A stretch of 64,000 nucleotides of DNA from Malacoraja senta (taxonomy: Eukaryota), in NCBI GenBank assembly GCA_038087875.1, contig CM075987.1, positions 18,726,001 through 18,790,000 on the forward strand, given 5' to 3'. Each line of letters opens with the position of its first letter. Within the stretch, counting starts at the first letter, position 1. Shown piece by piece: positions 3,001 to 52,900 of this stretch. The position numbers were made by a program, and so were the translations under genes. The notes under the pieces are model-generated. The model was not told where the DNA came from, did no database searches, and saw only the letters and a list, made by a program, of their open reading frames with translations.

Positions 3001-5168
3001 TTGGCAGATATATGGTCAAAGGATAGAGATGAAAAGGAGACAGAAGGGTGACAAAGGGGAGCAAAGGAGACAAGAAGGAAACATCCTTTACCCCACATGA
3101 TCCATCTGCCCATCATCCCCTCCCCACCTGGTTCCATCGATCACCCACCAGCCTCTGTCTCGCACACACTTCGCTCATACTGCTGTGTACCGGCAAACTT
3201 TACTCGCCAGCCGAGTCCTGATGCAGGGTGTTGACCTAGAATGTTGACCTTATGTCTCCACATGTGCCATTTGACCCGCTAAGTACTTCCAGCCTTGTGA
3301 CTTTTGAAGCAAATACCAAATTATTTGGTGAGCATTGCAAAAGTCACGTCATGCTAGTATGGCCTAGACAATATCTATCATATTCAACCCCAGAGTTTTG
3401 CATTTCAAGGCATTAATACAATTCATCCATGGAAGGATTAATAAATGTTTTTTAATCTGCAAAATTATTATTTTTTAAATGCTCCCGGGGTCAGATCGCC
3501 CGGCGCAGGGGAGCTGAGATCCCCCCGATGCAGGAGCTTGATCGCTCCGACATGGAGGGCCCGTTGCCGGCTACGGGAGCCAAGATCGTCCCGTCAATGG
3601 AAGGCTCGAGGTCCCCGACCGTGGAAGAACAAAGATGGGAGGAGATTGAACTTTTTTTCGCCTTCCATCACAGTGAGGAATGTGGAGGAGTCACTGTGGT
3701 GGATGTTTATGTTAAAATGTATTTTGTTTTGTTTTGTTGCTTTTTAATGGTATGACTGTATGGCAAATCAAATTCCTCGTATGTTGCAAAACATACTTGG
3801 CTAATAAAGTATGATTATGATATTACCCAAATTATTTCCCCCCCTTTGTGGTTTGCTTCATTGTGTTTGGCAGCTTTGACGAATGCCAGGGATCACTTTG
3901 AGCCACACAGTTTTCTCAATGGATTAATAACAAATTATAGATTATAATTCTTTTGAGATACTTTGAAATAAAGGGCAGCGGAAGATGGGTTGATATTTGG
4001 CAAACATCAAAGATTGAGATTTTCATGAGGGGTCTGCCACAGCATTTGAAAAGGATGAGGGATAGTGACAACAAGAAATCACAAACTATGTCTGGCAGAA
4101 GACTAGATGTGTCATTGATAAATCCAGTAAGTAGGGAGGTATTATAACTTAGACCAGGAAAGCACAGGAACAGGCTCTTCGGCCCACTATGTCTGTATCA
4201 AACATGATGCAAATCTGCACACAGATGATCCATATCACATAATTCCCTATATGTATGTGCCTAAGTAAAAGCTTCTTAAATGCCACTGTTGAACCTGCCT
4301 CCACCAACACCCCTAGGCAGCACATTCCAAGTACCTACCAATCTCTGTGTGAAAACCTTGCTCTGCACATCTTCCCCCCCCCCCCCCCTCTCTCACCTTA
4401 AAGCTATGCCCTCTGGTCTTTGACATTTCCACCCTGGGGAAAAGATTCTGACTATCCTATTTATGCTTCTCATCATTTTGTATACTTCTATCAGGTCTCC
4501 TCTCAACCGCCAATGTTCTGGTGAAAACAGCCCAAAGTTGTCCTACCTCTCCTTACACCTAATACCATCTAATCCACGCAGTCTAGTAAACCTGTTTAAG
4601 AAGGAATTGCAGATGCTGGAAAATCGAAGGTAGACAAAAGTGCTGGAGAAACTCAGCGGGTGCGGAGCGAAGGAAATAGGCAACATTTCGGGCCGAAACC
4701 CTTCTTCAGACTGATGTAGGTTGGGGGTGGGGTGTGGGGGAGGGGGGAAAGAAGAAAGGAAGAGGAGGAGCCAGAGGGCTGAGGGAGAGCTGAGAAGGAG
4801 AGGAGACAATAAGGGCTACCTGAAATTGGAGAAGTCAATGGTCATGCCGAAGCGAAACTCACCAAGCGAAATATGAGGTGCTGTTCCTCCAATTTCCGGT
4901 GGTCCTCACTCTGGCCATGGAGGCCCAGGACAGAAAGGTCGAATTCAGAATGGGAGGGGGAGTTGAAGTGCTGAGCCACCGGGAGATCAGGTTGGTTATT
5001 GCGGACCAAGCGGAGGTGTTCAGCGAAGCGATCGCCAAGCCTACGCTTGGTCTCACCGATGTACATCAGCTGACATCTAGAGCAGCGGATGCAATAGATG
5101 AGGTTGGAGGAGGTGCAGGTGAACCTCTGTCGCACCTGAAACAACTGCTTGGGTCCTTGAATGGAGTC

Positions 5169-6705
5169 CCAGGGTACTTAAGGAAGTGGCTCTAGAAATC
5201 GTGGATGCATTGGTGATAATTTTCNNNNNNNNNNNNNNNNNNNNNNNNNNNNNNNNNNNNNNNNNNNNNNNNNNNNNNNNNNNNNNNNNNNNNNNNNNNN
5301 NNNNNNNNNNNNNNNNNNNNNNNNNNNNNNNNNNNNNNNNNNNNNNNNNNNNNNNNNNNNNNNNNNNNNNNNNNNNNNNNNNNNNNNNNNNNNNNNNNNN
5401 NNNNNNNNNNNNNNNNNNNNNNNNATGGATTTACAAAGGGGAAATCATGCTTGACTAATCTTCTGGAATTTTTGAAGATGTAACTAGGAAAATGGACAAG
5501 GGAGAGCCAGTGGATGTAGTGTACCTGGACTTTCAGAAAGCATTTGATAAGGTCCCACATAGATTAGTGGGCAAAATTAGGACACATGGTATTGGGGGTA
5601 GAGTGCTGACATGGATAGAGAAGTGGTTGGCAGACAGGAAACAAAGAGCAGGGATTAACGGGTCCCTTTCAGAATGGCAGGCAGTGACTAGTGGGGTACT
5701 GCAAGGCTCGGTGCTGGGACCGCAGCTATTTACAATATACATCAATGATTTGGATGAAGGGATTCAAAGTAACATTAGCAAATTTGCAGATGACACAAAG
5801 CTGGGTGGCAGTGTGAACTGTGAGGAGGATGCTATGAGAATGCAGGGTGACTTGGACAGGTTGGGGGAGTGGGCAGATGCATGGCAGATGAAGTTTAATG
5901 CGGATAAATGTGAGATTATCCACTTTGGTAGCAAAAACAGGAAGGCAGATTACTATCTAATGGCGCCAAGTTGGGAAAAGGGGAAGTACAACGGGATCTG
6001 GGGGGTCCTTGTACATCAGTCTATGAAAGTAAGCATGCAGGTACAGCAGGGAGTGAAGAAAGCGAATGGCATGTTGGCCTTTATAACAAGAGGAATCAAA
6101 TATAGGAGCAAAGAGGTCCTTCTGCAGTTGTATAGAGCCCTAGTGAGACCACACCTGGAGTATTGTGTGCAGTTTTGGTTCCCTAATTTGAGGAAGGACA
6201 TTCTTGCTATTGAGGGAGTGCAGCGTAGGTTTACAAGGTTAATTCCCGGGATGGCGGGACTGTCATATGCTGCGAGAATGGAGCAGCTGGGCTTGTACAC
6301 TCTGGAGTTTAGAAGGATGAGAGGGTATCTCATTGAAACATATAAGATTGTTAAGGTTTGGACACGCTAGAGGCAGGAAACATGTTCCCGATATTGGAGG
6401 AGTCCAGAACTAGGGGCCACAGTTTAAGAATAAGGACTAAGCCATTTAGAACGGAGACGAGGAAACACTTTTTCTCACAGAGAGCGGTGAGTCTGTGGAA
6501 TTCTCTGCCTCAGAGGGCGGTGGAGGCAGGTTCACTGGATGCTTTCAAGAGAGAGCTAGATAGGGCTCTTAAAAATAGCGGAGTCAGGGGATTTGGGGAG
6601 AAGGCAGAAATGGGGTACTGATTGGGGATGATCAGCCATGATCACATTGAATGGCAGTGCTGGCTCGAAGGGCCCAATGGCCTACTCCTGCACCTATTGT
6701 CTATT
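5169..6705 (+). mobile_element. Young CR1/HER1-type LINE, 5' truncated (RT plus 3' UTR)
   Basis: ORF 5492-6370 has YLDFQKAFDKV, GSVLGP, FADD; tail (ctattgt)n; TSD gagtc at 5164-5168 and 6706-6710. Confidence 0.95.
5225..5424. other. Assembly gap (200 N)
   Basis: Run of N inside the CR1. Confidence 1.
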
Positions 6706-8044
6706 GAGTCAAGGGGGAGGTAAAGCGACAAGTGTAGCATTTCTTAGTCTAGTAAACCTCATCTGCATCCTCTCCAAAACCTCTGCATCTTTCCTGTAAT
6801 GGGTATTCAAAGCAATAACTGGTTTCATGGATAAGCTTAGACATTACAATATTCTATGAAATGCATTTGGTACTATTTCATACGTTTGTTTTAAACAAAA
6901 GTGTTGTGAATTTGAGTTGCAGAAACCATAGATTGCACTCTTCCTGCTTAAACTCAAATTTCTTGTGACATTCCATTAGTTTGCCTCTCCCCCTCCAGAG
7001 CAGCCTCTATTATTGGCAATTCCCAATAGATCAAATCATATCTAGTGTGTAGCATATGGAAAACTTTCTAAGTTGTCCCTCCAGATCTCTATAAAGCCAA
7101 AATCTCAGAACTACATGTTTACCAAATGGATCATAAAAGCAGCCATAATCAGCAATGGGTCTACAAATATTTCTGGTGCAATGCACTTGACTGACAACGT
7201 TTCACAGTATAATCCAGTTTCTCCGTCCAGGGATATTGCCTGGCCTGCTGAATGTTTAGTGCTTTTCAGTTTTTATTTCCAATTTTCAGCATTGTTCTTT
7301 TTTCTCTTCAGAACGGCACATTGCATCTTAACTGTGTGTGTCTGGTTAAAACACAAATTTCTGTACAAAATGCATCATCTGGAGTTGGACAAGGATGCCA
7401 TTTTATGAAATGCAATCGGCAGCCATTAAAACGTAGTAAGACAATCTTGTTTTAAAGTAATACTGTCACCAATCAAGGAAGTCAATCATTAGCTCCATTT
7501 GTATCGAACAATGAGATTAGATTAGACTAATGGGGCCATACATCAACGCACCAGCTAAGTAGACTTCATGTACGCAAACAGCTAACATCAGCTCTTTGAA
7601 GCTGATTCAAATGCAACAGACCACACATTGTATATCTTGGTATGGTGCATGATGAGCACAAAGTGGTTTTAGATTGGATAGTCAATATATGGAACAAACA
7701 CACAAAAGATCGCAACCCATGAATTACAAGGGTTCTACACAGTACAGATCGAGTGATTGTGAGCCACAAGTGCACTCCAGATCATCAATCACAATTATAT
7801 TGTTGTATCATGTTATATGGAAGAAAGGGATGAAATTCTGCTGAAAATCATTTAAGTCATCTTTAATCCCAAGGGGCCTACTAAGTGGAAGACTGAGCTG
7901 AGGTCAGGCAAAGGAGGCAGATACACAAATGAATACAGGGCAGCCAGTCATCTTGTACACCTTCTAAAAGGACATTATGGAAAGCTGAGCAATAGAGACC
8001 ACCAAGCAGGGTAATTTATTCAAAGGAGCACATCAAACAGTTCC

Positions 8045-8990: not shown

Positions 8991-9247
8991 ATGAAGGTGT
9001 ATTAATCTGCAATTGTTTGTTAGAGTAAAACAGGATGACTGCATATACATCAACATAATTGGGACACATCATTTTAGATCTGGCATTCATCCCGATCAAC
9101 TGCTTCTCTGCACCGTGATGAAAAGGTGTCTTCCACCACCCCCCCCCCCCCCCCACACATACTTCATTAAATTGCTCAAGAAACAATATATTTAGTTTAG
9201 TTTAGAAATACAGCATGGTAATAGGCCCTTCAGCCCATCTATCACAC

Positions 9248-9387
9248 TTCTTCTTTGTGCTTATGCCGTGCACAGCCTAAAGTTGTACGACAACTTGTTC
9301 TATTTGATGTTATTTGATTGTGCACGCCAGGTTGATTGCATTCGTCGAAACAGGGCGGACCACGTGAAGGTTGCACTCTCCCACCCC
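9248..9387 (-). mobile_element. Second copy of the HDV-like ribozyme-headed element (ribozyme 9334-9387), inserted in an HE1-type SINE
   Basis: Minus strand reads GGGGTGGGAGAGTGCAACCTTCACGTGGTCCGCCCTGTTTCGACGAATGCAATC...aaagaagaag. TSD atctatcacac/atcgatcacac at 9237-9247 and 9388-9398. Confidence 0.85.
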
Positions 9388-11645
9388 ATCGATCACACTA
9401 GTTTTATGTTATCCAACTTCTGCATCCACTCCCTACACAAAAGGCAATTATACAGTAGATACCAATTAACATACAATCCTGCAGAGCTTTGGGATGAGGG
9501 AGTAAATTGGAGCACCCAGAAGAACCCATGCAGTCACAGTGAGAACGTGCAAGCCCCACACAGACAGCAGATCGAACCCGGGTCTGTGGCGTTCTGAGGC
9601 AGCAGCACCCCAGGTGCACCAATGTGGAACCATACAATATCTGCACAAGTTATAAACATCACTTGCAACAAGATTGGATGAAGAAATCTGGCAATGCGTT
9701 CCAAGCCCCCACCACCCTCTGTAAGGAGGAGCAAGGTATCTCTAATATTAACATTTGCACTTTGGGGAATGCATAGAAAAACAAGGCAACAGCATATTAA
9801 CTCTAGAAACTGTGACGGTAAAGGTTGTGAGATTGGATACTTGAGGCGGGTTAGCGGATAAACAGAGAAACGTTCATAACTCATTGGAAAGGTCCACAGA
9901 AGGGTAAAAAGCAGTAAGAAGGATAAAAAGCAGTAAATATATATAATTGCTGCCATAAAATTTAATGTTGCCAATTTTTCAGGATTCAGCAGTAGAAGAA
10001 TCGGTTGATGGCTGAACTATAAAATCTGTCAAGACAACCAATGAAAAATGATCATAAAATACTTAATGAACTAGTGTTCACTGAATATGTTAGGAGCCTA
10101 ACATCACCCATAATTAATGATAATTAAGATTTATTTTTAATGATAACCATCTTAGATAGGCTTAGTGAGCTCAGAACTGACACATTCTTGTGAATGCAAG
10201 TATTCTATGATTGTCAATGAAGATATTTTGCCGAGTCATTTTGGGAGTTACAAATAATGGCCTCCTAAACTGAACAGCACTAACACTCGATAGTTATTGT
10301 TGGTGTTGATGAAATGAAACATTCTACATCAGTATATTCAGCACTTGACAGATCTGGACATTGCTGTTATGTATTAAGAACGGCACATTGGTGCAGCTGG
10401 AAGACCTGCTGCACCATAGCGCCAGAGACTGGACTCGATCCTGACCTCGGGAGCCATCTGTCAAGTTTGCACATCCTCCCTGCGACCACATGGGTTTCTT
10501 CTGGGTGCTCCGGTTTCCTCCCATATCCCAAAGAGGTGCGGGTTTGTGGATAAATTGGCCTCTGTCCAATTTCCCCTATTGCGTCCACAGAGTGGATGAG
10601 AAAGTGGGATAACAGAGTAGTGTGAACTAATGATTGATGGTTGGCATGGTCTCGTCGGCGAATGTACCCGTTTCCATGTTGTATAGAGCACAGAAACAAG
10701 CCCTTCGGCCCAACATGTTCATGCCGACCAAGGTGTCCCATCTGCACTAGTCCCACCTGCCCGCGTTTGGCCCATATCCCTCCAAACCTTACCTATCCAT
10801 GTATCTTCCAATCAAAAATGAAATTCTGAACTGCAAAATAGTGAAGCATAGGTTAGAATACTGAAGCACATTGTAGCGTACCTGGAGGTGTGGTAAATCT
10901 GACTGTCAGCATAAACATTAGCCTGGCTTGCTGTGGGCTAACATGCCTAGACTGGGCCAAATAGCCTCCATCTATGTGTAAGGAAATAAAAGAGGGGTGA
11001 TGTGGTGGCACAGTGTTATCCACCTTTTCACCTCTGGCCTTTGTCCATTCCACCCATCTTCCAATAATCCCCTTCACCTATATCCAGCTATTACCTGCCA
11101 GCTTTGCCCTGTCCCACCCTGTTTTCCAACTTGCACCGGTCTACTCCAATAAGTCTTGCTCCAAAATATTGCCTGTCCCTCCCCAGATGTTGCCTTATCC
11201 GCCGAGTTCCCCAAGACTTTGTATTTGGCTCTCCCCAAAAACATGTTGGTTGGCAGGTTGTCTACTTTAAATTTCACCGAAGCGTTGGTATGTGAAAAGG
11301 AGAAGACTGATTCTTGGTGACTGATAGATCATAGAACAGTACAGCACGGGAATGGGCCCCGTGGCACACAATGTTTGTGCTGATCATGAAGCCTAGCTGA
11401 ACTCATCTCATCTGCCTGCACATGATCCATATCCCTGTTCCCTGCACTTCCATGTGCCTATCCGAAAGCCTCTTAAACACCACTATCATATCTGCCCACA
11501 CTACCACCCCTGGCAATGCATTCCAAGCCCCCACCACCCTCTGTAAGGAGGTTTACCAGAATGCTGCCTGGATTAGAGGGTTTCATCGACAGGAAGAGTT
11601 TGGATAGACTTGGATTGTTTTCTCTGTAATGTCGGAGGTTGAGTG

Positions 11646-11828: not shown

Positions 11829-12382
11829 TGTCTCCACTCAACCTCCGACATTACAGAGAAAACAATCCAAGTCTATCCAAACTCTTTCCTGTAGCAGAAA
11901 CCCTCTAACCCAGGCAGCATTCTGGTAAACCTCCTCTTCACCCTCTCCTAAGCTTCCACATCTTTCCTGTAGTGGGGCAACCGCACACAATATTCCAAAT
12001 GTAGCCTAACCAAAGTCCTATAGAGCCTGCATTATGACTTCCTGACTCTTGTACTCAATTGAAGGCAAGCATGCCATATGCCTTCTTTACCACCTTATCC
12101 TTGTGTAAGTGAGCTATGATCCTGGACTCCAAGATCCCTCTGTACATCCATGCTGTTAAAGGTTTTGCCATTAACTGTCTACTCTCTTCTTACCTTCAAC
12201 CTCCCAAAGTGCAACACCTTGCACTTGCTCGGGTTAAACACCATCTGCTATTTCTCCACAGCTGGTCTATATCCCACTGTATCTTTTGACCGCTTTCCTC
12301 ACTCTGCAACTCTTCCAATTTTGTTGTCATCAGCAAATTTACTCACCAATCCATCTACATTTACATCTAGCTTATTTATATA

Positions 12383-13984
12383 CAGTGGCTTGCAAAAGTA
12401 TTCATACCCCTTGAACTTTTCCACATTTTGTCACGTTACAACCACAAATGTAAATGTATTTTATTGGGATTTTATGTGATAGACCAACACAAAGTGGTGC
12501 ATAATTGTGAAGTGGAAGGAAAATGATACATGGTTTTCAAATTTTTTTACAAATAAAAAACGGAAAAGTATTCAGCCCCCCTGAGTCAATACTTTGTAGA
12601 ACCACCTTTCGCTGCAATTACAGCTGCAAGTCTTTTGGGGTATGTCTCTACCAGCTTTGCACATCTAGAGACTGAAATTTTTGCCCATTCTTCTTTGCAA
12701 AATAGCTCAAGCTCAGTCAGATTGGATGGAGAGCGTCTGTGAACAGCAATTTTCATGTCTTGCCAGAGATTCTCAATTGGATTTAGGTCTGGACTTTGAC
12801 TGGGCCATTCTAACACATGAATATGCTTTGATCTAAACCATTCCATTGTAGCTCTGGCTGTATGTTTAGGGTCGTTGTCCTGCTGGAAGGTGAACCTCCG
12901 CCCCAGTCTCAAGTCTTTTGCAGACTCTTAACAGGTTTTCTTCCAAGATTGCCCTGTATTTGGCTCCATCCATCTTCCCATCAACTCTGACCAGCTTCCC
13001 TGTCCCTGCTGAAGAAAAGCATCCCCACAGCATGATGCTGCCACCACCATGTTTCACAGTGGGGATGGTGTGTTCAGGGTGATGTGCAGTGTTAGGTTTC
13101 CGCCACACATAGCGTTTTGCATTTAGGCCAAAAACTTCAATTTTGGTCTCATCTGACCAGAGCACCTTCCTCCACATGTTTGCTGTGTCCCCCACATGGC
13201 TTGCAGCAAACTGCAAACAGGACTTCTTCTGGCTTTTTTTCAACAATGGCTTTCTTCTTGCCACTCTTCCATAAAGGCCCAATTTGTGGAGTGCACGATT
13301 AATAGTTGTCCTGTGGACAGATTCTCCCACCAGAGCTGTGGATCTCTGCAGCTCCTCCAGAGTTACCATGGGCCTCTTGGCTGCTTCTCTGATCAATGCT
13401 CTCCTTGCCCGGCCTGTCAGTTTAGGTGGACGGCCATGTCTTGGTAGGTTTGCAGTTGTGCCATACTCTTTCCATTTTCGGATGATGGATTGAACAGTGC
13501 TCCGTGAGATGTTCAAAGCTTGGGATATTTGTTTATAACCTAACCCTGCTTTAAACTTCTCCACAACTTTATCCCTGACCTGTCTGGTGTGTTCCTTGGG
13601 CTTCATGATGCTGTTTGTTCACTAATGTTCTCCAACAAACCTCTGAGGCCTTCACAGAACAGCTGTATTTATACTGAGATTAGATTACACACAAGTGGAC
13701 TCTATTTACTAATTAGGTGACTTCTGAAGGCAATTGGTTGCACTGGATTTTATTTAGGGGTATCAGAGTAAAGGGGCTGAATACTTTTGCACACAACACT
13801 TTTCAGTTTTTTATTTGTAAAAAAATTTGAAAACCATGTATCATTTTCCTTCCACTTCACAATTATGCGCCACTTTGTGTTGGTCTATCACATAAAATCC
13901 CAATAAAATACATTTACGTTTGTAGTTGTAACATGACAAAATGTGGAAAAGTTCAAGGGGTATGAATACTTTTGCAAGCCACTG
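12383..13984 (-). mobile_element. Full-length Tc1 (Passport/Eagle/Glan-like) DNA transposon
   Basis: ~200 bp TIRs starting CAGTGGCTTGCAAAAGTATTCA, TA TSDs, transposase inside; inserted in a CR1 RT region. Confidence 0.95.
12586..13606 (-). pseudogene. Tc1 DD34E transposase with a single 1-nt frameshift near 12928
   Basis: Two overlapping ORFs carry [19 protein letters not shown] and [11 protein letters not shown]; 34 residues lie between the second D and E. Removing one base gives 339 aa. Confidence 0.92.
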
Positions 13985-16439
13985 TATATCACAAATAGCA
14001 CAGGTCCCAGCACAGATCCCTGCAAAACTCCACTGGTCACAAACCTCCAGCTAGAATATCTGCCTTCCACCGCAACCTTGTCATCTATGACTAAGCCCGT
14101 TCCAAATCCATATGACCAAGTCATTGTGAATCCGGTACATCTTAACCTACTGGATAAATCTATCGTGAGGGATCTTATCAGAAGCCTTACTAAAGTCCAT
14201 GCATACAACATTCACCACCCAACCTTCATCAATCTCCTTTGTCACTCCTCAAAAACCTCAGTCAAGTTAGTAAGACATGACCTGTCATGTAAAATGCTGG
14301 CTACTCCCAATTAGTCCATTCTCTTCCAAACGGGATAAATCCTATCTCGAAGAATTCTCTGAAATAGTTTCCTAACACTGACATGAGACTAACTGGCCTA
14401 CAGTTCACTGGATTCTCTCTATTTCCTTCCAAAGGATGAACATTGGCCACTCACCAGGCCTCCGGGACCTCGCCTCTGGCTAAAGAAACAAAGATCCTCG
14501 TCAAGGCACCTGCAATCTCCTCTCGTGCCTCCCTCAATAACATGGGATAAATACAATCAGGCTCTGGGGACATCCATCTTAGTGTTCTTCAAGAGCCTCA
14601 GCACCCCTCTTTCTCATTCTCAAACTGCCTTAGCATATTTGTATTCTCCACACTGACCTCGCTGTCCTCCACGACTTTCTCCTTGGTGAATACAGATGCA
14701 GAGGACTCATTTAGTACCTCATCCACATCCTTCAACTTCAAGCATAGATTCCCCCTTTTATCTTTTAGTGGTGCTGCCTTCTCCATGGTAACCGTCTTAT
14801 TTTTAACGTACGTATAAAAAGCCTTAGTGACAGACCACAGAGATGAGCAAAAACAAAAACCCTCAAGTAACTTGACTTTATATTTTTACTGCTTCTGACG
14901 ATTTTGTTTTTAGGGTGGGCACCATTTACTGTCCAACTCTTATTTCCCCCCAATACGAGTTATTTTACAGGCCATTCCAGAGGGCAGTCAGGAGTCAATC
15001 ATATTGGATTGGAAGGATCAAATCTCATGGCTAGAAAGGGTTAAATGGGCTATGGGCCAAAGGCAAACAAATGCGACAAGCTCAGTCTGCCAACTTGGTT
15101 GGCATGGACAAGGTGGGCCAAAGGACTGTATTCCATGTTGTACAGCCCCTTGACTCTATTGGTGTGTCTGGAATCAAATTCGGTTAGACTATATTAAAGA
15201 GAGATTTCCTTCCCTGGGAAGTACTCGAGTGTATCAGATGGAATTTGCACAATCTAGTGGTGCCTTTGTGATATTAGTTTTTTATTCTTAACGTTTCAAT
15301 TAAATTTAAATCCTCAGCTGCCATGCCTCCAGATCAACAGCGTGGATTTGCTCCACTAATATAAAGCACTGAAGTCGAAGAAACTCTGGAAAAGAACTTC
15401 AAATTACATTTAATAACAGATAAAGAAATAAACCAAGGGTGATGGGGTGGAGATGTGAAAGGACAGATTGAACTAGCCAAATAACCTTGGAACGGTCCAC
15501 GGGCAGCAAACAAGATACTCTGGAATTCAGGCAGCTGCAGCTCCTGCAACCGCGGATGGATGAGCTGCAATAAAGTAAACAGCCTTCCTCAGTTGTTTTT
15601 GAAGAGACCCCAGTGCAATTTAGTGTCAATAAAATACTATATCAATCATACTGCACAGCATTTCACCAAGACGAGTGTAAATCTAAAGATCAACTGATTC
15701 CATCAGAACACTATTAGGAAAGGTAGGCAGAAATCTGAGTGAACAGCATTGATTATTATACATTTATCTGCGTGTTGTTGTGTTAAGCTGCCTGTTATGC
15801 TGCTGCAAGTAAGAATTTCATTGTTCCTTTGCAGGTACTTAAAATAATTAAACACCCTTGGAATTGCATTTATCTTTCGACTGGCCTTCAAAGGTACCTG
15901 GTATTATCTGCAAAATAACAGAATGGGCAAGACAACCCATTCAATATTTTGCAAAGTAGACATATAACATTTGAATGGTCAGAATAACCTTCACTTAAGT
16001 ATTGCACCATGCATTAATTTTTACCAAAGTCACCAATGATCTGATGCACTTCAAGTTAGGAGATGAGATAAAACTGTTTATCATGAATCAATTGGCAATC
16101 TTTCTATCAGAAGAGATATAATTATCTCAAAGCAGCTGTATATAGGACAATCATTTGAAAGCAAACTGCTTAAGATGACCCAAATTAATTTGGTCAGGGT
16201 AGAGGTAACTGACCCAATTTAGGATAGATTACAAAAGACAGTGTGTTGTGATTCTTTGTAATTCTTCAAACTTCCACAAATCCTGAGCTCACAAAGTTGA
16301 CAAGTTGAGTGGATTTAATCTTAGATTTGGAGCATCAAACTTCAATGCAAATTTGTATAATAAATACTTTATAAAAAGAGTATGATAGAATAAAATATTT
16401 AGATACTGAATGAGGTGGTTCATCAAGATCGCCACACAC

Positions 16440-18544: not shown

Positions 18545-18961
18545 TTACATATCAACAAACACCATAAAACACCAGCCCAGTCCTCCAACTAGCAGCATTG
18601 TCACATGGATCCCATAGATAAAGAGTTCATTCATGGTGTTAAAGTCAACACGCCTACGCCCCAGCAACAGAAGCACTATGGACAGCTTGTATTGAAAGCG
18701 CAAGGACACACGTATAGAGAAGTACTGGATGCAGAACAGGATAGAGAGTGCCACCCAGAGTATGGATGTAAAAAGACTGCAGCTGAAGTACAGCAGGAAG
18801 CGGATGAAGCTAAACAGCCACCGTGGTTTCAAGTAAAGGTCGAAGTTGTATTTGGTCCGGACAAGGTGCGCCGTCCGAACAGGGCCACATGTCGAGTGTA
18901 GACATGTAGAATGGGGGCCGTGGAATGAACGCACCCGCCGGGGGATTGGGATTAAAGGCAT
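18545..18961 (-). CDS. TMEM250: Transmembrane protein 250 (C9orf69 orthologue), 138 aa, single coding exon
   Basis: Translation MPLIPIPRRVRSFHGPHSTCLHSTCGPVR...VGGLGWCFMVFVDM closely matches recalled human TMEM250 (MPVMPIPRRVRSFHGPHTTCLHAACGPVR...GGLGWCFMVFVDM). ATG at 18961; the ORF track's TTG start at 19033 lies in the 5' UTR. Confidence 0.96.
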   Translation of the reverse strand: MPLIPIPRRVRSFHGPHSTCLHSTCGPVRTAHLVRTKYNFDLYLKPRWLFSFIRFLLYFSCSLFTSILWVALSILFCIQYFSIRVSLRFQYKLSIVLLLLGRRRVDFNTMNELFIYGIHVTMLLVGGLGWCFMVFVDM

Positions 18962-19084
18962 CAAGGCAGCTTGCTGCAATGTTCTCTCGGTGACAAGAGT
19001 CCCAGAAAAAGTGGCTTTGCAAACAGCAAACAAATCATCGTCCGTTAGTGGTCAACAGCTCCTCACTGTTTCCTTTCCAAAGGT

Positions 19085-19110
19085 CTGCAAAAGAGAAACA
19101 AAAAAAGTGT
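19085..19110 (-). other. TMEM250: Splice acceptor of the TMEM250 coding exon
   Basis: Minus strand reads cactttttttgtttctcttttgcAG|acc: polypyrimidine tract plus AG about 120 nt upstream of the ATG. Confidence 0.75.
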
Positions 19111-19689: not shown

Positions 19690-21392
19690 ATCTAGGAGCT
19701 GAAAGGGCTGAAGGCGGATAAGTCACCTGGGCCGGATGGGCTGCACCGTAGGGTTCTGAAAGAGGTGGCTTTAGAGATTGTGGAGGCATGACAGTGATAT
19801 TTCAGGAATCACTAGTCAGGAGTGATCCCAGATGATTGGAAAATTGCCAATATTACCCTGCTGCACAAAAAGGGAGCAAGGCAGAATAGTGGGAACTATA
19901 GTCTGACTTCGGTGGTTGGTAAGATTTTACAGTGCATTAAGGAAGTATTCAGACCCCTTCACTTTTTCCACATTTTGTTACGTTACAGCCTTATTCTAAA
20001 ATGGATTAAATTCTTTTTTTGTATCATCAATCTACACACAATACCCCATAATAAAATAGGCCAAAGTCAGCATGGTTTTGTGAAGGGGAGGTCTTGCTTG
20101 ACAAATTTGCTGGAATTCTTTGAAGAAGTAAATAGCAGGACAGACAAAGGAGAGTCAGTAGATGCTGTTTACTTAGATTTTCAGAAGGCCTTTGATAAGG
20201 TTCCACACATTAGGCTGCTTAGGAAGATGAGAGCCCACGGTATCAAAGGGCAGATGACGCTACAAGCTTGGCACACCTGTATTTGGGTAATTTCTCCCAT
20301 TCTTCTCTGCAGAAGAGCAGGTTGGCTGGATGGCAGAAGACAAAAAGTGGCAATAAAGGGGGCATTTTCTGGTTGGCTGCCAGTGACTAGTGGAGTTCCT
20401 CAAGGGACGGTATTGGGGCTGCTACTCTTCACGTTGTATATTAATGATTTGGACAAGGGGATTGAAGGCTTTGTGGGAAAGTTTGCGAATGATACGAAAA
20501 TAGGTGAAGGGGCACATGGTGTAGAGAAAACAGGGACTCTGCAGAAGGACTTGGACAGGATGGTAAAGTAGGCAGAGAAATGGCAGATGGAATATAGTGA
20601 AGCAAAGTGTGGAGTCATGCATTTTGGTAGTAGGAATAAAGGTGTAGACTATTTTCTAAATGGGGTGAGAATCCAGAAATCGGAGGTGCAAAGGGACTTG
20701 GGAGTGAGTGCTGGTGCAGGATTTCCAAAAATTTAATCTGCCAGTCGAATCAGTAGTAAAGAAAGCAAACTGAATGCTAGCATTTATTTCAAGACGGCTT
20801 GTAAACAAAAACAAGGATATAATGTTGAGGCTGGCAAGGCCACATTTGGAATATTGTGTGCAATTGTGGACACCATATCTGAGGAAGGATGTGCTGGCTC
20901 TGGAGAGGGTTCAGAGGAGGTTTACAAGAATGATCCCAGGAATGAGTAGGTTAACCTATGATGAGCGTTTGTCGGCACTGGGCCTGTACTCACTGGAGTT
21001 TAGAAGAATGAGGGGGGACCTCATTGAAACATACAGAATAGTGAAATGCTTGGATAGTGGATGTGGAGAGGATATTTCCACTAGTGGGAGAGTCTAGAAT
21101 AAAGGTCATAACCTCAGAATTAAAGGACGTTCTTTCAGGAAGGAGATGAGGAGAAATGTCTTTAATCAGAGAGTGGTGAATCTGAGGAATTCTTTGCCAC
21201 AGACGGCTGTGGAGGCCAAGCCAGTGGATATTTTTAAGGCAGATATAGATAGATTCTTGATTAGTACAGGCGTCAGAGGTTATGGGGAGAAGGCAGGAGA
21301 ATGGGGTTAGGAAGGAGAGATAGATGAATGAATGGCGGAGTAGACATGATGAGCCGAATGGCCAAATCCTACTCCTATTCCTTATGACCTAT
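19690..21392 (+). mobile_element. CR1 LINE in TMEM250 intron 1, containing two Tc1-derived patches
   Basis: PDDWKIANI, QHGFVKGRSCLTNLLEFF, YLDFQKAFDKVPH, GVPQGTVLG motifs; CR1 3' UTR ending near 21390. Confidence 0.9.
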
Positions 21393-24300
21393 ATATCATA
21401 ACATTTAACTCCTGGAATCAAATTTGGTCTCTTAAAGAATACTGCTATGTTGCATACATTCCAATTCAGGCAAAAAGTGAACTGAAGATAAAAGTCAGAT
21501 TTTGTCTGACCATATTGTACTCAAAATATATGTATTTATTTCTGCCTTTAGTTTAGAAAATAAAAACCTTTGTGCAGGAGTCACATGGAATGGAATCCTC
21601 CTCTAAAACTGGCACCCAGTCTTCGAGGAGGATTCTTGACAAGATAAAAAACATGGTCAAATCTGTTTTACATGTAGGAGGAGGAATTTAAAATATTATT
21701 TTAAACAAAAGTAATAATTGACTTTAAAATTAGTTGCAGTTTTGAAATATTTATCTGAAGCAATGACAATGTTTGCAAGTACGATTTATCCATTATATCA
21801 AAAAAGTTTTAAGGCAATGATTTATGAATCAACGGGCTCGTAAAACCTCAGTAATGCCTCAATCAAAATTCTCAGTGGGAATAGCTTACAAAATCCTGAA
21901 TTCTTCATCATATTTATGAACAAAATCATGTAAAAAGTAATGAAACGGCACTAGTCAGTACAAGAGGGGAGAAAAATACATCACTGAACGCAACTTGAGG
22001 ACTTTCTCCTTTAACTGCAGACATCTGATCTCCAGAAGATGCTGTCAGTTTCAATGTGCAATTATGGCATATGCTGACAATCACCATCACTGCAAAATTC
22101 AGGTTATTAAATAAAGTGGCTCATATCTGCTATGACACGATGCCATCCCAAGCACTGGCATCTGTCCAGTGATGTAGCACAAACATTAACTTCCTTATCA
22201 TGGTTTCTAGAGGGAGGAGAGCATCAGTTGAACATAATTACACATAAACACAAAACCTCACTGCAGAATAAAACTGTAGGCTTTGAATCAAATAATTTGT
22301 GATTAATTTCTCGCTTAGTACAAGGAAAGTTTTCCAGCAGTACTCTCTATAATAGGTAATTTATCTTATTAAAATTATTCCTTCATCAAAGGGAAGTAGA
22401 TAATCATCAATAATGGGAAATAGCTGGATTAATATACTATTTGCATAGCTTCAGAGAATGCCAAAGTATTTTAGAATAAATTGATTGCTTTAGCAGTGTA
22501 TTCATTGGTAACCACTATCAGTAATAATAATAACAGGAAATTCTGGAATCCTTTAGCGTGTTACGCAGCATTTATGGAGATAAAATATAAACAGAATTTA
22601 AAACTTATGGAGTGACAACTGCTGTATCTGTCACTGGACTAGATCCAGTTATATTGTCTGATCTTACTGGGACTTCCAGCAAAACGGGAGACGGATCAGT
22701 GAGGGTGGAGGGGGGAAAGAGGGATGGTCTAAACAAAAATCACTGCTCCAATCCTCAACCAGGCCAGACATGGCAACACCTTCATGTGAATGAGCAGTCA
22801 CGCTGCAGAATGGGAAGGCAAGTTTTGTTTTGAAGAAACTTTTAGAAGAATGGTTCCTGAATTTTTTTAATGTATGATCAACAAATATTTTCTGAAAATA
22901 ACTATTGACATTGATGTAATCCATTTATTTAAAAATTGTTGTAAAGCTTCACCATTTTGTTTGAAACCTATCACTACTCTAGACTTCTAACAAAGGCTGT
23001 CAGATATTCTGGTTAAGGGCCTCTGGACTACACCTGATGCTAAGGCACCATTTGCACTTCGCACCACTGAAACGGGCTCTCTGCATCCAGGTAAGGTCAG
23101 GTGGGTTGGCTCCATGTATTTGTTCTAGTCAAGACTGTTCCGAAGTTGATTGCCGTACTCTACATTTACTGTGCTTCATTTCATTACAATCATGAGTTAA
23201 AACTAAATATTAGTTTTATATAATGATATTAGCATTGCAGTACAAATGTACCAGTTTCAATGCTTTCAACATATCTTTTACAGATCATGGAATAAGTTAC
23301 ATGTTGTCAGTCAATGAGGTGGAGGTGGGACAGGGAATGGGACACACACTCAGCAGCTTTCCTCTCAACAAACAAAATAGAATTGCTCAACAGTCTAATT
23401 AAACTGTGCAGCACAACAGCCTAAAAAGTCTGTTTTATGTAAGCATGACTCCTGAGCAATAACATCACCCAAGTAAAGCAGGTGTTTTTTTTCCATAGCA
23501 AAATGCAGTGATGGCCATGTACATAAAATGAACAATGTACAAGGAATGAACAGTCTTCCAGCTTTCTTTTCCCCACCCCTGCAATCAGTGTGAAGAAGGG
23601 TCCTGATCCGAAAAGTCATTTATCCATGTTCTCCAAGGATGCTGCCTGACCAGCTGAGTTGCTCCAGCATTTTGTGTTGTTACATGGAATCAATTCCAGT
23701 CACTTCCAGCACAACTAAAGGAAGAATTACACCATTGTCTCCAATCTGACTGAAAGAACAGGCAATATTTCAAGGACTTACATTCCTAAATATAGTCCTT
23801 TTTTGTGTACAAAAAGATGCCAGTACACATATCGCTCCTTGCTGTTGCTGTCTATGGTGGATTGTTGTCCAATAAGCTGCTTAAACGCAAATGCCTAATT
23901 TTACTTAAAAATATTAATCAATTTTATCTTTTTTAACTTTAGTGATCTTTACGTAGTATTGAAATTCTAAACATTTGCAATTCTAGTTTTAAACGTTTTA
24001 GAAGTACCGTTACAAAAAAAGCACTGTCTAAAAAAACAAAAGTCTAATTTCAATATGATTTGCATTGCAAATACAATATTTGCAGATCAGGTGAGAAGGT
24101 CAAAACTAGAAATGAGTGATTTCTTCTGTACTATCTAACCACCACATTCCCCTTGGTGATTCTTGACATTGCGAACAGGGAACAGGGGCAGGCTGCACCG
24201 GGAGCCAAAAGTAGGGCATATGCCAGAAAGGCATCTCCCATTTACAGGCCAGAGAACAAAATGCAAAATGTAACCAGAGAATACTAATACTAAGAGCAGC

Positions 24301-26752
24301 GAACTAACTAACTCCACATGGACAAAGTTCTGAATAAGAGCCTCCACGTTATCAGCTGTTGAATCTTAAATGTATCAAACACTGTACATTTTCAATATGC
24401 CCTAGTCCTTCCATAAGTACCAGTCCTGCTTTTTTCCACCTACATCATCACAGATATTGGACATTTTGTAACACAATGCTCAGAAACTATATACTGCACT
24501 CTGGTATTTTTCTCTTCAATCTACCTGTTGTACCTGTATATGGCTTGATTGTATTCAAGTATAGTATTATCTGATCTGATTGGATAGTTTGCAAACAAAA
24601 GCTTTTCACTGTATCTTGGTACACCTGACAATAATAAACCTAAACCTAATATAACCCCGAGTAATTTTTCAAACTTACTTCGATGCTGAGCTGGAGGCAA
24701 GTCCAATTCAAGATCTCACTGATGATGCCAGCTTCCCTCCACAAAATCTTCTAATATTGCCTATACTATAGGCAATATTAATATTGAATAAATTAATATT
24801 TGAGTATTGACCTACCTCAAGAAAACTATAGGCTATAGTTTTCCTGAGGTTGGTCAATACTCAAATATTAATTTGTATTACTGCTCGAATATAATTTTGG
24901 AAGAACATGAAAGCAGCAGTATAATTGCAGTCTAACTGTACAAACCTATCTTTTCACTTCACTTCCAAAGTTCAGTATTTTGAAAATTATTTAAACCGGC
25001 AATTGACAATTGACTGGCAATTGACCCTCCCACATTAGCCCGCTCCCCGCAGAAGAAAAAGGGAGAAGAGAAAATTGTGAAAATTCTTAAATACAATCAC
25101 AAAATCTTTGTACCTTTTAAAAGGATGTTATACTACATACAATGAACTGCATACAGCATGCGTTGACAACATTTCAAATGAAATAATAGGTACATCAAGT
25201 TTATATGTTGGGGGACACAAGGAAGAACAGATGCTGAAATCTTTATCAAAACACAAAGTGCTGGAGAAACTCAGTGGGTCAGGCAGCATCTGGGGAGTGG
25301 ATAGACAGGCGACAGTTTGGGTCTGAAGAAAGACCTGAAACATTGTCCATTCCCTCTCCAGGTGCTGCCTGACCACTTAATTCCTCCAGTACTTTGTATT
25401 TTCTTTTATATTTTGGGGGTTTAATGAAATGAAAAAAAATGTCTCTGAAAACTTGCTGCCAGGTTCAATAAAGACTATCCTTCCATATTTATAATGAATT
25501 CCTATACAATATCAATCTGATAAATTAATTGTTCCAGCATCCAACTATGTCACACAACTTGAATACATATTTGTAATAAAAAGGAACTATGGATGCTGGT
25601 TTTTACCAAAGATAAACACAAAATGCTAGAGTAACTCAGCGGGTCAGACAATATCTCTAGAGAAAATGGATAGGTAACATTTTGGATCAGGACCCTTTCA
25701 GAATGATTGAAAGAGGGGTGGAGGGGGCGACGACGACTGGAAGCAAGGAAAAACAAAACCCAGGACAAATCAGGGGCGGCCACAAATGATGTGCTGATGG
25801 GGAAGGGGAAGGGGAAGGGGGAGGGGGTGTTTGTAGAAGTTAACCAAAATGAGTGAATTCAACGTTCATAGAAGAAGGGTTTTGGCCCGAAACATTGCCT
25901 ATTTCCTTCGCTCCATAGATGCTGCCGCACCCACTGAGTTTCTCCAGCACTTTTGTCTACCTTCGATTTTCCAGCATCTGCAGTTCCTTCTTAAACAACG
26001 TGACTTTATGTTGTAAGTTGCACAAGCCCACTGAGTTACTCCGGTGCTTTGTTTCTATCTTTGTTATAAACCAGCATCTGAAGTTCTTTGTTTCTGCATA
26101 AAGTTTGGGTCAGGGTTACATATCACCCTGTACTTGCTGGTGATGGGGGAGGTAATTGGAATATTTGCTGGCAATGCAGCAGAGCAGTTGAGCACATGGC
26201 CCAATCTTGCTGACAAGTAGGTGTGTTAGTTCCCTGTCCCCATCTTTAAACTTTGGAGGTGAGTGTTGAGAGGCCAGGGACAGGGGTTTAAAGAGGCAGT
26301 TAGAAAAGAAGAAAAGCTGAAATTTATCAATGGAGCCCAGGATAGAAATTTATTTTTCTACATTCTTCACCATCTTGCAATCAACAGTAAGTTTGCCTCT
26401 CAGATATTATGTAACAACATTGAAGGCCACTCTGCCCATCGACTTTACACCAGTTTGCAGAGTAAACCCAATGTCTTGTACCTGTCCATTTCTATCCACC
26501 TGATTAACCAGCACCCAATTACACCTTGAGCAATTTAAACTGGTCAATTAATCTAACAATCCACACATCTTTGTAATGTGGAGAAAGACCAGGCAGTCAT
26601 AAGGAAGATTATGTAAACACCAAGACAGGATCAGTTTGAATCTGAGTCACTTGAGCTACATCACCACTTTTCCACCCAAACTTATACCTTTATTTCCTCA
26701 TAGCCAGGCATATCTACTAGTAAGATCACTGCTTTGATCCCACATGATGTTA

Positions 26753-43314: not shown

Positions 43315-43484
43315 GTCATAGTCATTGTGCTGTACAGCATGGAAACAGGCCCTTCAGCCCACCTTATCCATACCAACAAAGTATGATATATTGCGCTAGT
43401 CCTATATGCTCGCCTTTGGCCTATATTTTTCTAAACTCTCCCTATCTATATATCTTTTTTTTTTTTCTTTTTTTTTTAGGGGCC

Positions 43485-43535
<51 letters not shown>

Positions 43536-49092: not shown

Positions 49093-49789
49093 AAACTCAC
49101 TGTCAATGTCTTGAAATCACTTACAGATCTGAGGAACATTCTTGAACCTCTCGTCTACATCCCTTGAGAAACAAGTAGGAAAAATGAGGAAAGCAGTAAA
49201 GGGAGAGAGGACTCCATTTTAGCGAACATGTGTCAGGCCTTGTTACGGATGCTTTATATTGAACCATGCCAATATTCTGGACAGATTACTGAATATCTCA
49301 TAACAAGGCTCTACGCAGTCTTCATCAACTCAACGTAAATTTCCAAATGACACCACTGTGGTATTTGGTGGTAAGTGGCATTTAAGAGGCTTTTAGCTGG
49401 GGGCCTGAATATGCAGGGGCTGGAAGGATATGGATCACACGCAGGCAGAGGAGATTAGTTTAGCTTGGCAACATGTTCGGCACGGACATGGTGGGCCAAA
49501 GGACCTGTTTCTGTGCTGTACTGTTCTTGTTCTATGTAACGACCTTTTAATACAGTACCTTTAACATTGTAAAAAGACACAAAGCCCTTCAAAGCATTTG
49601 ACATCAAACTACATAATTAAATATTAAGGTAACCTAGCCAGACAGGTGGGTATTAAAGATTACCTTAACTGGATAGGGAGGACAAGGGGGAGACATTGAG
49701 GGACAAAATTCCTACACTTAAGACCTTTGATGCTAAAGTACATCCACTGATGCAGAAACAACGTTATAACAGGGTTTTTACTCAAAAAT

Positions 49790-49843
49790 GGGGTGGAAGA
49801 TTGCAACCTTCACGTGGTCCGCCCTGTTTCGACTAATGCAATC
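49790..49843 (+). ncRNA. Minimal HDV-like (CPEB3-type) self-cleaving ribozyme, predicted
   Basis: P1 GGGGUGG/CCGCCCU (G1-U wobble), P2 GAUUGCA/UGCAAUC, P3 ACC/GGU, L3 UUCACGU, GU after P1, J4/2 CUAA; P4 reduced to UUCGA. Confidence 0.8.
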
Positions 49844-49925
49844 AACTCGACGTGCACAAACAGAAGATCAAATAGAACAAGTTGTCCTACAACTTTAGGC
49901 TGTGCATGCCACACGAAAGAAGAAG
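49790..49925 (+). mobile_element. Short non-autonomous retroelement headed by an HDV-like ribozyme, with (GAA)n tail
   Basis: Second copy at 9248-9387 (-). TSD actcaaaaat/actaaaaaat at 49780-49789 and 49926-49935; tail aaagaagaag. Confidence 0.85.
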
Positions 49926-52900
49926 ACTAAAAAATGAACCCATTATATCGGCAGCCGAATGGAGATGGGCTGTGACTATGTCTACCATGGTCTAAGAAGG
50001 TGCCTGAGGTATGGAGCTGTCCACTAACAGTGTCACGCAGAGGGCAGGAGGCAGAATTCCCATGGGATTCACCTGACTCTCCCCGTAGTCAAGATGCAGC
50101 TGGGAGTTTAGACAAACAGAGCAAGTGGTTTCCAAATCAAACATTGGGATCATTTTGGAAATTCTAATCCCAGCATTAATGGAGAAAAATCTTTTCATAC
50201 AAAGATCCAAACTGGACACTTTCTTGCAAGAAAGCAGCTTGGTGCTGAACAATGACTCCAGCAGATTAATTACCAAGAGACCCGTTTCCGTTCCTGCAAA
50301 TTATAATTTGGCCTTGGCTTGTTAATTAGATACCTCCTCAACCTACATGGTTTCAATGATTACAGAATCTTTTAATTAGTTAATCATTACCAACATTTGG
50401 GATATTGGTTAATTAACCCTCTGCCCTCTCCAGTCTACTTTTGACGTCCAATGAAGAATTGCTTCATAAAGTAGTAATTAGTACAGTAAAGGGTAAAGGT
50501 CAGGTGAAACCATTCCTTGTCCGTCTTTGGACTTGTCCATTTGCACTTTTCAAAAGCGGCCATCCTCTCACGATCGTCAAGCACTGATGTTCTGGCATCC
50601 TACCTGAGTTCTCTTCACGTGAAGACCAGTTACAGAGTTAGTCAATGACAATAGGTGTCCGTGGACGACAGGACTCAATGACAATGATAAGAATGATAAG
50701 ATGCAGCTCTAAAGACTTTAGAGTCTTTGGTGATGTAGCTCTAAAGACTTTGGGTCCTGACCCAAACAATTGCCTATCCTTGTCCTCCAGAGATGTTCTT
50801 CTGCCGTTGCGTTACTCCTGCACTTTGTGTTTTACTCTATAAGACTTTGGTTAGGTTGCATTTGGAGTATTGCCTGCAGTTCTGGTTGCCCCATTACAGG
50901 AAGGATGTGGAGGCTTTGGAGAGGGTGCAGAGGAGATTTACCAGAATGCTGCCTGGATTAGGTGATATTAGCTACACGGAGAATTTGGACAAATTTGGAT
51001 TATTTTCTCTAAAATGTCAGAGGTTGAGAGAAGACCTGGTAGAAATACATAAAATTAAGAGAGGCATAAATAGGCTGAATGGTCACAACCTTGACATATG
51101 CCTGAGTGGATAGTGCCCAGAAAATGGGCATGAATCTATCTGATTTCTCAGCTCCAACACACCTAACACACACTCCCCAGCAGAGGTCAGCATCAGAGTA
51201 AAGAACGCGCTGCTGAGGTCTCTCACTAACCTGATTTTCTTCCTGCTGTTATTGCACAGGATTTCACTAAAACTGCCACATTTAACATCACAGATACCAG
51301 CAATAGGACATTTAAAAAACACAGAGTTCTCAGCCCCATCTTTGGAGAGATAAACATTTCAGAACAATCGCCTATGCTCAAAATCATTACTCGGGCAAAG
51401 CCCTGATCTTAAACTCCTTGCCATTACTTCCAAATCCATCCTTCAGTCCCAACAGTCTGTATTCCTCCAATTCATTCCCCGATTGTGGTTCTTCCTAATG
51501 GCAGCTTTAAGCTACCGTGAACCCCCCAACTTCTGAAACCTCTTCTTGGAACCTTTTGTCTTTCCACCTATCTCTGCTCCTTTAAAATTGATTGATTGAT
51601 TGATTGAATGGTACAGCATGTAAACAGGCCCTTCCTCCCACCAAGGCCATGCCAACCATCGATCACCCATTCACATTAGTTCTCATCCACTCCCCACACA
51701 CTGATGGCAATTTTACAGTGAACGATTAACCTACAAACCCGCACATGTTTGGGACATTGAAGCACCCAGAAGAAACACAGGCGGTCACAGGGAGAACGTG
51801 CAAACTCCAAACAAACTGTACCTGAGATCAGAATCGAACCTAAGCCTCTGGTGCTGCGAGACAGCAGCTCTACCAGCTGCGCCACTGTGCCGCCCTTTAA
51901 ATCACCCAAATAGATTTGCTTCCAACTAAGCAACTGGGGACACAAGGAACTGCACAAGGATGATGGAATCTATCTCTCCAATCTCTCCTAAGAGCCCGGG
52001 AGCTCCTGTTACAGTAGTCGCTTCATAAATGCCCAAAAGCATGGTGATACTCACTAAAACGTGGACAGAAGTAGTTGGAGTGAACAGCGTTGATGCATTT
52101 GAGGAAACCTGAAGAGTGAGGGTGGATGGAATTCTGTGAAGATTTGTTGATTGAGGTTGAAGGAGACAACTGTGGAACACCAGCACCAACGTGAATCAGA
52201 TGGGCCAAATGGCCTGTTTCTGTGCTGTACTATATATTGCCCAGCAATTCTCTCAACCGGAGACACCGCCTCAACCGGCCCTTCCAGGTTGTGTGCCCCT
52301 TTCTAAAGAGCCTCACAGGAGAGAGAACTCCCTCCCGTCTGCAGGTGAATCTGAAGCCAGTTGGAGAACAAGAAAGGAGCCAACGGATCTGAAAGAATAA
52401 ATATTTCATAACAGCCTAACAATAGCAAGAATGCTTGGCGAGTGGAGAAGCAGGATGAGAGGAGGATTATCAGAGAGTAAAATTAAATATATCTTCACAA
52501 TGCTATCCTGTAGGAAATTCAGGCCATTTGGCCCATCTGATTCATGTTGGTGCGAGTGGTCCACAGTCGTCCCACTCCACCCCTATCATCAACTCCCATC
52601 ACAAACTCATCACCACTTCACCGTTCCATCCATCGCTGCACTATCCAATTGAGAAAAAGGTAAAACAAAAAAACCTAATTGGAAGAACTCAGCGGGTCAG
52701 TCAGCATCCACGGTGGGAATGGACAGATGGCATTTCAGCGCGGGACCCTTCTTTAGAGAAAAGATTAAACTCTGCTTCTTCAGTGACATATTTTGGGGTA
52801 ATTATTCAATAGAATATTCACGTTGTGTTCTGTGATTTCTCGATTCTTAAACTAAAAGGCAAAAATGGGAAAATTTACAATTTGGCAGTGAACAGAAATA

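Follow-up and report, generated by a model that had tools for sequence, protein, structure and literature searches.

A short vertebrate retroposon family that begins with a predicted HDV-like ribozyme

On the minus strand of the 64-kb window (the whole stretch of DNA analyzed, 64,000 nucleotides), we identified a 140-bp mobile element at 9387-9248, which begins at the predicted cleavage site of an HDV-like ribozyme (G1, position 9387) and whose AAG-repeat tail ends at 9248-9249. A sister copy lies elsewhere in the window, and it is virtually certain that the two represent a real retroposon family. We assign a probability of roughly 0.65 to the reading that the element is a non-coding, non-autonomous non-LTR retroposon of the 'ribozyme + 3' end' kind (a SIDE, or bipartite LINE) that likely depends on a partner of the Ingi/Vingi type. 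Ribozyme-headed non-autonomous retroposons are an already known class, of which this element is a further family. The family may already have a name in repeat databases; our literature search, which covered papers and had Repbase and Dfam outside its scope, found no description of it.

Two independent insertions of the element

Across its two window copies the element is 136-140 bp long, non-coding, flanked by target site duplications (TSDs), closed by a simple-repeat tail, and dispersed in multiple copies. The 9387-9248 copy is 86.7% identical over 143 nt (E 7e-44) to the sister copy at 49790-49925, which is its sole homologue within the window; an nhmmer search of the 64-kb window with a profile of the two copies returned no third copy at E <1. 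Outside the element the two copies have unrelated flanks (best non-element match, E 0.2), indicating two separate insertions, and a segmental duplication of the two loci was rejected since these flanks share nothing. This agrees with the first-pass annotation, which had proposed independent insertions: in addition to the unlike flanks, each copy has a TSD and the 9387-9248 copy splits a SINE. The coordinates of the features discussed below are collected in Table 1.

Table 1. Features of the 9387-9248 copy, its sister and the interrupted host SINE.
Feature	Position	Strand	Remarks
Minimal HDV-like ribozyme, 54 nt	9334..9387	-	Descriptor and fold; predicted, with putative activity
P1	9387-9381 with 9358-9352	-	7 bp, G1.U36 wobble
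J1/2	9380-9379	-	Ribozyme descriptor
P2	9378-9372 with 9340-9334	-	G-A mismatch at 9376
P3	9371-9369 with 9361-9359	-	3 bp
L3 (TTCACGT)	9368-9362	-	Conserved loop
G37-U38	9351-9350	-	G37 can pair with C22
P4 remnant (TTCGA)	9349-9345	-	Five bases between U38 and C44
J4/2 (CGAA)	9344-9341	-	Putative catalytic C at 9344
Predicted cleavage site	between 9388 and 9387	-	Ribozyme fold
3' module	9248..9333	-	Outer stem CGTGCACA/TGTGCACG around hairpin AAGTTGT/ACAACTT, then AAG-repeat tail
Upstream TSD of 9387-9248 copy	9385..9399 (core 9388-9398)	-	Overlaps G1-G3; contains AT at -2/-1
Downstream TSD of 9387-9248 copy	9234..9248 (core 9237-9247)	-	One mismatch to upstream TSD
Sister copy	49790..49925	+	Similarity search and descriptor; perfect P2, J4/2 CTAA, 3' end CACACGAAAGAAGAAG
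Upstream TSD of sister	49780..49790	+	Ends ATG, includes G1
Downstream TSD of sister	49926..49936	+	Ends ATG
Host SINE 5' part	9388..9626	-	tRNA-like head, same orientation as insert
Host SINE 3' part with (CTAAA)n tail	9187..9247	-	Alignment to other copies

The first 54 nucleotides fit a minimal HDV-like ribozyme

We searched both strands of the window with a ribozyme descriptor comprising P1 (7 bp with a G1.U wobble), P2, P3, L3, G37 and C-N-A-N. The full descriptor matches the two copies of the element only, in each case at the element's first base, and gave no match in 6 block-shuffled windows. In both copies the helices of a nested double pseudoknot (P1, P2, P3 and P1.1) occur in the right order, with all pairs of P1 (7/7) and P3 (3/3) present and P1.1 consisting of the single pair C22-G37. 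P2 is complete in the sister (7/7) and has 6 of its 7 pairs in the 9387-9248 copy. J4/2 reads CGAA in the latter and CTAA in the sister, so that the candidate catalytic C and the A that follows it are kept in both; CGAA and CTAA are both known J4/2 forms of HDV ribozymes. The P4 helix is absent from the ribozyme of the element, TTCGA alone lying between U38 and C44.

For the 9387-9248 copy these results match the earlier description of a retained P1, P3 and L3, a J4/2 of CGAA and one P2 mismatch, and they place that mismatch, G opposite A, at 9376. They also reveal a second private change besides this one (U12G), namely A8G at 9380, which was absent from the earlier description. In folding calculations U12G both breaks a P2 pair and forms a hairpin that competes with P3, the pairing probability of which is 0.01-0.02 in this copy versus 0.17-0.40 in the sister. 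Because of these two effects, the 9387-9248 copy is probably a weak cutter today. In the source copies of the family, the ribozyme would very likely be active.

General-purpose searches gave little signal. The best Rfam match of the sister was an HDV ribozyme family, a weak hit of 16 bits (E 0.92) where the gathering threshold is 44, and the 9387-9248 copy had no Rfam match at E up to 10. Rfam models of HDV ribozymes are lineage-specific. Nested folding of the whole element likewise gave no signal (z 0.0), as is expected for a double pseudoknot, since the method cannot model pseudoknots. No tRNA was found in the element, the first 54 nt of which are ribozyme rather than a Pol III head (tRNA, 5S or 7SL), Rfam being empty for the 9387-9248 copy.

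A predicted 3' stem-loop module follows the ribozyme

The remaining 86 nt of the element make up a 3' module, in which a TTGT..ACAA hairpin sits within an outer stem. Its folding score was z -1.94 in the 9387-9248 copy, where 9 of 200 shuffles fold equally well, and z -0.85 in the sister (43 of 200 shuffles). This module is presumed to be the recognition site for the protein of a partner LINE. Loose contig ends from two runs define the 3' end of the family as CACACG(A/C)AAGAAG; the sister agrees with this sequence, while the 9387-9248 copy has drifted from it.

The family is large and the 9387-9248 insertion is old

We surveyed contigs from four runs (X1, X3, X4 and X5; 4 of the 24 runs listed), which represent four organisms. 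Summed contig depth reached 0.8-4.0 million over the element versus 9-47 on unique flank, in line with the high-copy family that the first-pass annotation had expected from two copies in 64 kb. The resulting ratio of 130,000-210,000 is an upper figure, as short contigs overlap, and dividing it by 31 for this overlap gives a floor of 4,000-7,000. A depth ratio is no copy number, and we take 10^4-10^5 as an order of magnitude; the family thus has roughly 10^4-10^5 copies, with which the density in the window (2 copies in 64 kb, or 4-113 per Mb) agrees. A family of this kind offers tens of thousands of natural ribozyme variants for mutational analysis. At J4/2 the family has either CGAA or CTAA, the latter accounting for 15-39% of depth in the contigs of the four organisms. 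The CpG is asymmetric: G32A (14-27%), which would change a wobble to a Watson-Crick pair, is commoner than C31T (4-11%) in family contigs. This excess was set aside as evidence, since it is accounted for equally well by the decay of CpG, by subfamilies or by mapping bias.

In each run one contig piece crosses the 5' junction at 9387; these pieces match over 190-366 nt, with 0, 5, 19 and 19 differing letters. The bridging rule of 31 letters holds for the X4 piece alone, those of X1, X3 and X5 having 25-28 letters inside the element. Since the junction is crossed by contigs of all four organisms, this insertion is common to them, and it is old rather than recent.

The two ends of the element suggest a probable Ingi/Vingi partner

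Only four groups, RTE, Ingi, Vingi and R2, are reported to give rise to bipartite elements in which a ribozyme is joined to the 3' end of a LINE (PMC5786205); SIDEs or bipartite non-autonomous LINEs have also been reported in PMC3414825 and PMC6765202. At 136-140 bp, the element is smaller than the bipartite elements compared from the literature (195 bp and up). Features of both of its ends suggest, with moderate confidence, that its partner is an Ingi/Vingi LINE. At the 5' end, P3-L3-P3 is identical at 11 of 13 positions to L1Tco of the Ingi clade. Compared by eye, the 5' end of Vingi-2_Gav (PMC5786205) has the same register over positions 1-38 and an identical L3, CCCT-GT and CGAA. At the 3' end, the family terminus CACACG(A/C)AAGAAG and the TTGT..ACAA hairpin are similar to the terminus of SINE2-1_AMi, a SINE derived from Vingi, the likeness comprising 7-8 nt plus the hairpin core; 'acacgaa' occurs once in the 141,770-character supplement of PMC5786205, in SINE2-1_AMi. 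Against such a partner, Vingi is absent from the ribozyme-bearing clades given by Kojima 2018 (PMC5786205). The Vingi 5' end is not termed a ribozyme in that study.

These likenesses have clear bounds. The element and Vingi-2_Gav are identical at 21 of 37 bases over positions 2-38, and the element is without the P4 stem (PMC5786205), so that no direct descent is shown. Similarly, SINE2-1_AMi has a tRNA head that the element is without (PMC5786205). By eye, paired positions of the element differ on both sides from those of Vingi-2_Gav and of the CPEB3 ribozyme and still pair, namely 5-32, 6-31 and 7-30 in P1, 17-29 and 19-27 in P3, and positions in P2.

Several known systems share part of this design. 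Like NARTc, RIME and SIDER, which are Ingi-clade elements of trypanosomatids (PMC3185411, PMC4035085, PMC3383444), the element is short, non-coding and dispersed, with an HDV-like ribozyme at +1. The TSDs of those elements measure 11-12 nt, as do those reported for L1Tc. It differs from them in its vertebrate host, its length of 136-140 bp, a G-rich P1 that starts with G, a 5-nt P4 and an AAG tail. The R2 and R2/R1 SIDEs of Drosophila likewise consist of a ribozyme and a LINE 3' end alone, and cleavage has been shown there (PMC3414825). However, these elements are specific to rDNA and have few copies, with R2Dwi_SIDE measuring 529 bp (PMC3414825), whereas the present family is dispersed in about 10^4-10^5 copies. 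With an absent or vestigial P4 and a catalytic C in J4/2, the head of the element also resembles the minimal (P4-less) HDV-like or theta ribozymes, of which about 99% are found in phages (PMC10879173), whereas the present heads belong to a vertebrate retroposon and have no adjoining tRNA. The eukaryote screen of that study covered human, mouse and protists only. The P4-less form has thus far been reported almost only from phages, and here it is found in a vertebrate retroposon.

It is rather unlikely that the partner is instead an RTE-clade LINE acting by the same mechanism, or that the two ends derive from different clades, as in the R2/R1 hybrid SIDEs. Bipartite elements derive most often from RTE, in which 5' ribozymes are present as well (PMC5786205, PMC6765202), microsatellite tails are reported to be common in RTE, and the hybrid SIDEs provide a precedent for ends of mixed clades (PMC3414825). 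On the other hand, in the RTE-rich supplement of PMC5786205 'ttcacgt' occurs 3 times, the two listed passages being the Vingi-2_Gav alignment, and the single 'acacgaa' lies in a Vingi-derived SINE.

An autonomous partner with both ends, whether of the Ingi/Vingi or another type, was found neither in the 64-kb window nor in collections of viral, prokaryote and metagenome sequence. Metagenome contigs gave 0 matches to a 24-nt ribozyme pattern, degenerate ribozyme patterns had 0 in viral and prokaryote contigs, and a 3' hairpin pattern had 0 in viral contigs. A shorter, 17-nt pattern matched 66 loci; these were dismissed as chance, as none of the 66 fits P1 plus P2 or carries the 3' module.

Self-cleavage as the probable determinant of the 5' end

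The first-pass annotation had the 9387-9248 copy beginning exactly at GGGGTGG beside an 11-bp TSD. The start holds to within 1-3 bases, but the TSDs take in G1-G3 in this copy and G1 in the sister, and the two copies are alike from the AT onward, two bases ahead of G1. The 11-bp core of the TSD, which has one mismatch, is present, but the match extends to 15 bp, still with one mismatch. The sister has an 11-bp TSD, also with one mismatch. As the TSD match extends into G1-G3 (G1 in the sister), the 5' boundary can be placed only to within 1-3 bases, the span of this microhomology.

Contig data place most 5' ends of the listed family members close to the same point. No fall-off of depth toward the 5' end is seen, the 5' bin having 1.2-1.5 times the depth of the 3' bin, and beyond 9390 depth drops about 15- to 30-fold. 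Among the 83,740 contig pieces, 32 were listed, mostly chosen for their length, which favours full-length copies; 27 of these lie on the element, and 8 of the 27 have at least 150 nt of unlike 5' sequence, the direction of the records being an assumption. Their 5' ends fall at 9390 (two pieces), 9389 (four pieces), 9385 and 9359, and two of the eight may share a locus. Scattered 5' ends would have counted against a defined start; in this length-biased list (32 of 83,740), 7 of 8 lie within 3 nt of G1. No pile of loose ends at 9387-9390 was seen among the 24 listed of 1,607.

These observations bear on the central proposal of the first-pass annotation, namely that self-cleavage, not truncation, sets the 5' end. 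Its observational basis stands: independently retrotransposed copies end at the predicted cut site, and G1 as the start of the RNA fits cleavage. The step to a cause is less direct, as an RNA of 140 nt is easily copied in full and equal ends show that the RNA had a defined start, not what defined it. We consider it probable that self-cleavage would set the 5' end. Under the corresponding scheme, a copy of the element would be read within a longer host transcript, and the ribozyme, to judge by its fold and by tested relatives, would cut 5' of G1 and free the unit RNA. The partner protein would then bind the 3' stem-loop, nick the DNA and prime reverse transcription, a step of which the TSDs are the observed trace. 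Finally, the second strand would be cut at or just after AT(G), where G residues of the target may pair with a cDNA ending in C and give rise to the microhomology. The 9387 copy would be an old, fixed product of this process that all four organisms share, and through U12G it probably cuts only weakly today.

The AT in front of G1 is the point on which the readings differ. It directly precedes the G in the TSDs on both sides of the element in both window copies. At the AT-dinucleotide frequency of the window (0.077), the chance of AT upstream of G1 in both copies is 0.006, and in the 6 of 8 listed long-flank contig pieces that have it, about 5e-6. If AT reflects a target preference of the partner endonuclease, cleavage at G1 stands; if it is part of the RNA and was captured by microhomology, the RNA started two bases early and there was no cut at G1. 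That AT is repeated in both TSDs favours the target-preference reading.

The second of these readings corresponds to a start defined by an internal Pol II promoter, with the RNA beginning at A(-2) or G1 as for Pr77 of L1Tc. AT would then be part of the element, captured through ATG(GG) microhomology where the second strand is joined, and the ribozyme fold would be inherited or a 5' protective structure rather than the feature that sets the end. We consider this unlikely, although the recurrence of AT in the window copies and listed contig pieces is what it predicts. In its favour too, when two upstream bases are included, P1 can be lengthened by pairs of A(-2) with U38 and of U(-1) with G37 (probability 0.5-0.6), and P1 extension of this type is reported to reduce cleavage in L1Tc and R2. 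In L1Tc/NARTc, moreover, the promoter has been mapped to the same +1 as the ribozyme, and the L1Tc primer extension at +1 cannot separate the two. However, the repetition of AT in the downstream TSD of both copies reads as target DNA, the P1 extension gains 0.4 kcal/mol only, and the ribozyme retains its full set of core features, its helices differing from those of tested relatives on both sides of a pair. It is possible but speculative that this AT-driven extension of P1 is a built-in damping of cleavage in new copies.

The weakest alternative, that an ordinary short repeat shows the fold by chance or that the loci are a segmental duplication, is very improbable: the missing Rfam match of the 9387-9248 copy and a folding z-score near 0 would suit a chance fold, but the descriptor finds both copies at their first base and nothing in 6 shuffles, the register is that of tested ribozymes (CPEB3) and of the Vingi-2_Gav 5' end, and the flanks are unrelated.

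The family permits a clean genomic test of cleavage, promoter and target microhomology as determinants of the 5' end, a question that also matters for Vingi-based gene-insertion tools (PMC13708176).

Relation to the CPEB3 ribozyme

The comparison with Vingi-2_Gav brought up a second match. By eye, the elephant CPEB3 ribozyme (PMC8233481) and Vingi-2_Gav (PMC5786205) are identical at 38 of 40 positions between G2 and the beginning of P4 and, in the 3' part, at 14 of 14, near-identity to the mammalian CPEB3 ribozyme spanning nt 2-74 of Vingi-2_Gav. SINE2-1_AMi carries the same P4 stem as these two (by eye, PMC5786205). This match suggests that the CPEB3 ribozyme derived from a Vingi 5' end and was domesticated. 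Our literature search, with subscription journals and Repbase outside its scope, found no paper linking Vingi with CPEB3; if not already recorded, the match is relevant to where the best-known self-cleaving RNA of mammals came from.

The element itself shares with the mammalian CPEB3 ribozyme (PMC8233481) the lengths of P1, J1/2, P2, P3 and L3 and an identical L3, CCCU-GU and CGAA. The CPEB3 ribozyme is, by contrast, single-copy, intronic and conserved, with a 7-bp P4, and its stem sequences differ from those of the element (PMC8233481). As the layout is shared but the stem sequences are not, the element is a cousin of the CPEB3 ribozyme rather than its source. A broader picture, which we offer tentatively and regard as rather doubtful as a whole, is that retroposons of the Vingi type provide vertebrates with a standing supply of CPEB3-like ribozymes, with CPEB3 as a domesticated case and the present element as a parallel, extreme and P4-less one that has reached 10^4-10^5 sites. 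A preference for landing after AT would, on this picture, extend P1, block P1.1 and damp cleavage, allowing the host to tolerate copies inside transcripts.

Host SINE and genomic surroundings

The first-pass annotation also described the element as inserted into an HE1-type SINE. That a SINE was split is well supported: the joined flanks of the insert align across the junction to other SINEs of the window (for example 44315-44579, E 4e-24), and many contigs join 9237-9239 to 9391-9393. The interrupted SINE (9388-9626 plus 9187-9247) and many SINEs of the window are putatively HE1-like. HE1 is listed as the V-SINE of sharks and rays in a review table; together with a vertebrate TMEM250 frame, these SINEs suggest that the DNA is from a cartilaginous fish, probably a shark or ray. 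About 26 nt present at the insertion site in most members of the SINE family are missing from the host copy. Host SINE and insert have the same orientation; about 240 nt separate the tRNA-like head of the SINE from the ribozyme downstream of it, and a T4 run occurs near 9440 in this interval.

Pfam scans of 40 and 103 reading frames, which detected TMEM250, reverse transcriptase and Tc1 relics, found no exon flanking either copy. The 9387-9248 copy lies 9.2 kb downstream of the TMEM250 stop codon on the same strand; the TMEM250 coding exon, to which the Pfam family TM250 matches at E 5e-79, spans 18545-19085 on the minus strand and has its splice acceptor near 19085. An assembly gap of 200 N occupies 5225-5424. 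LINE fragments with reverse transcriptase domains occur at 5425-6706, 20072-21400 and 34490-35457, all three without the 3' end of the element, and the stretches 5738-6706 and 34490-35457 are 96% identical. The transposase frames of two Tc1/mariner relics (12378-13989 and 26746-28408) are broken, and their terminal inverted repeats measure about 195 and 233 bp. A truncated retrocopy of U6 snRNA on the minus strand at 43433-43541 (Rfam, 68.6 bits) consists of the 5' half of the RNA with an A-rich run after it, and an inverted repeat of about 560 bp (82%; 41056-41578 and 42198-42751) surrounds a GC-rich core.
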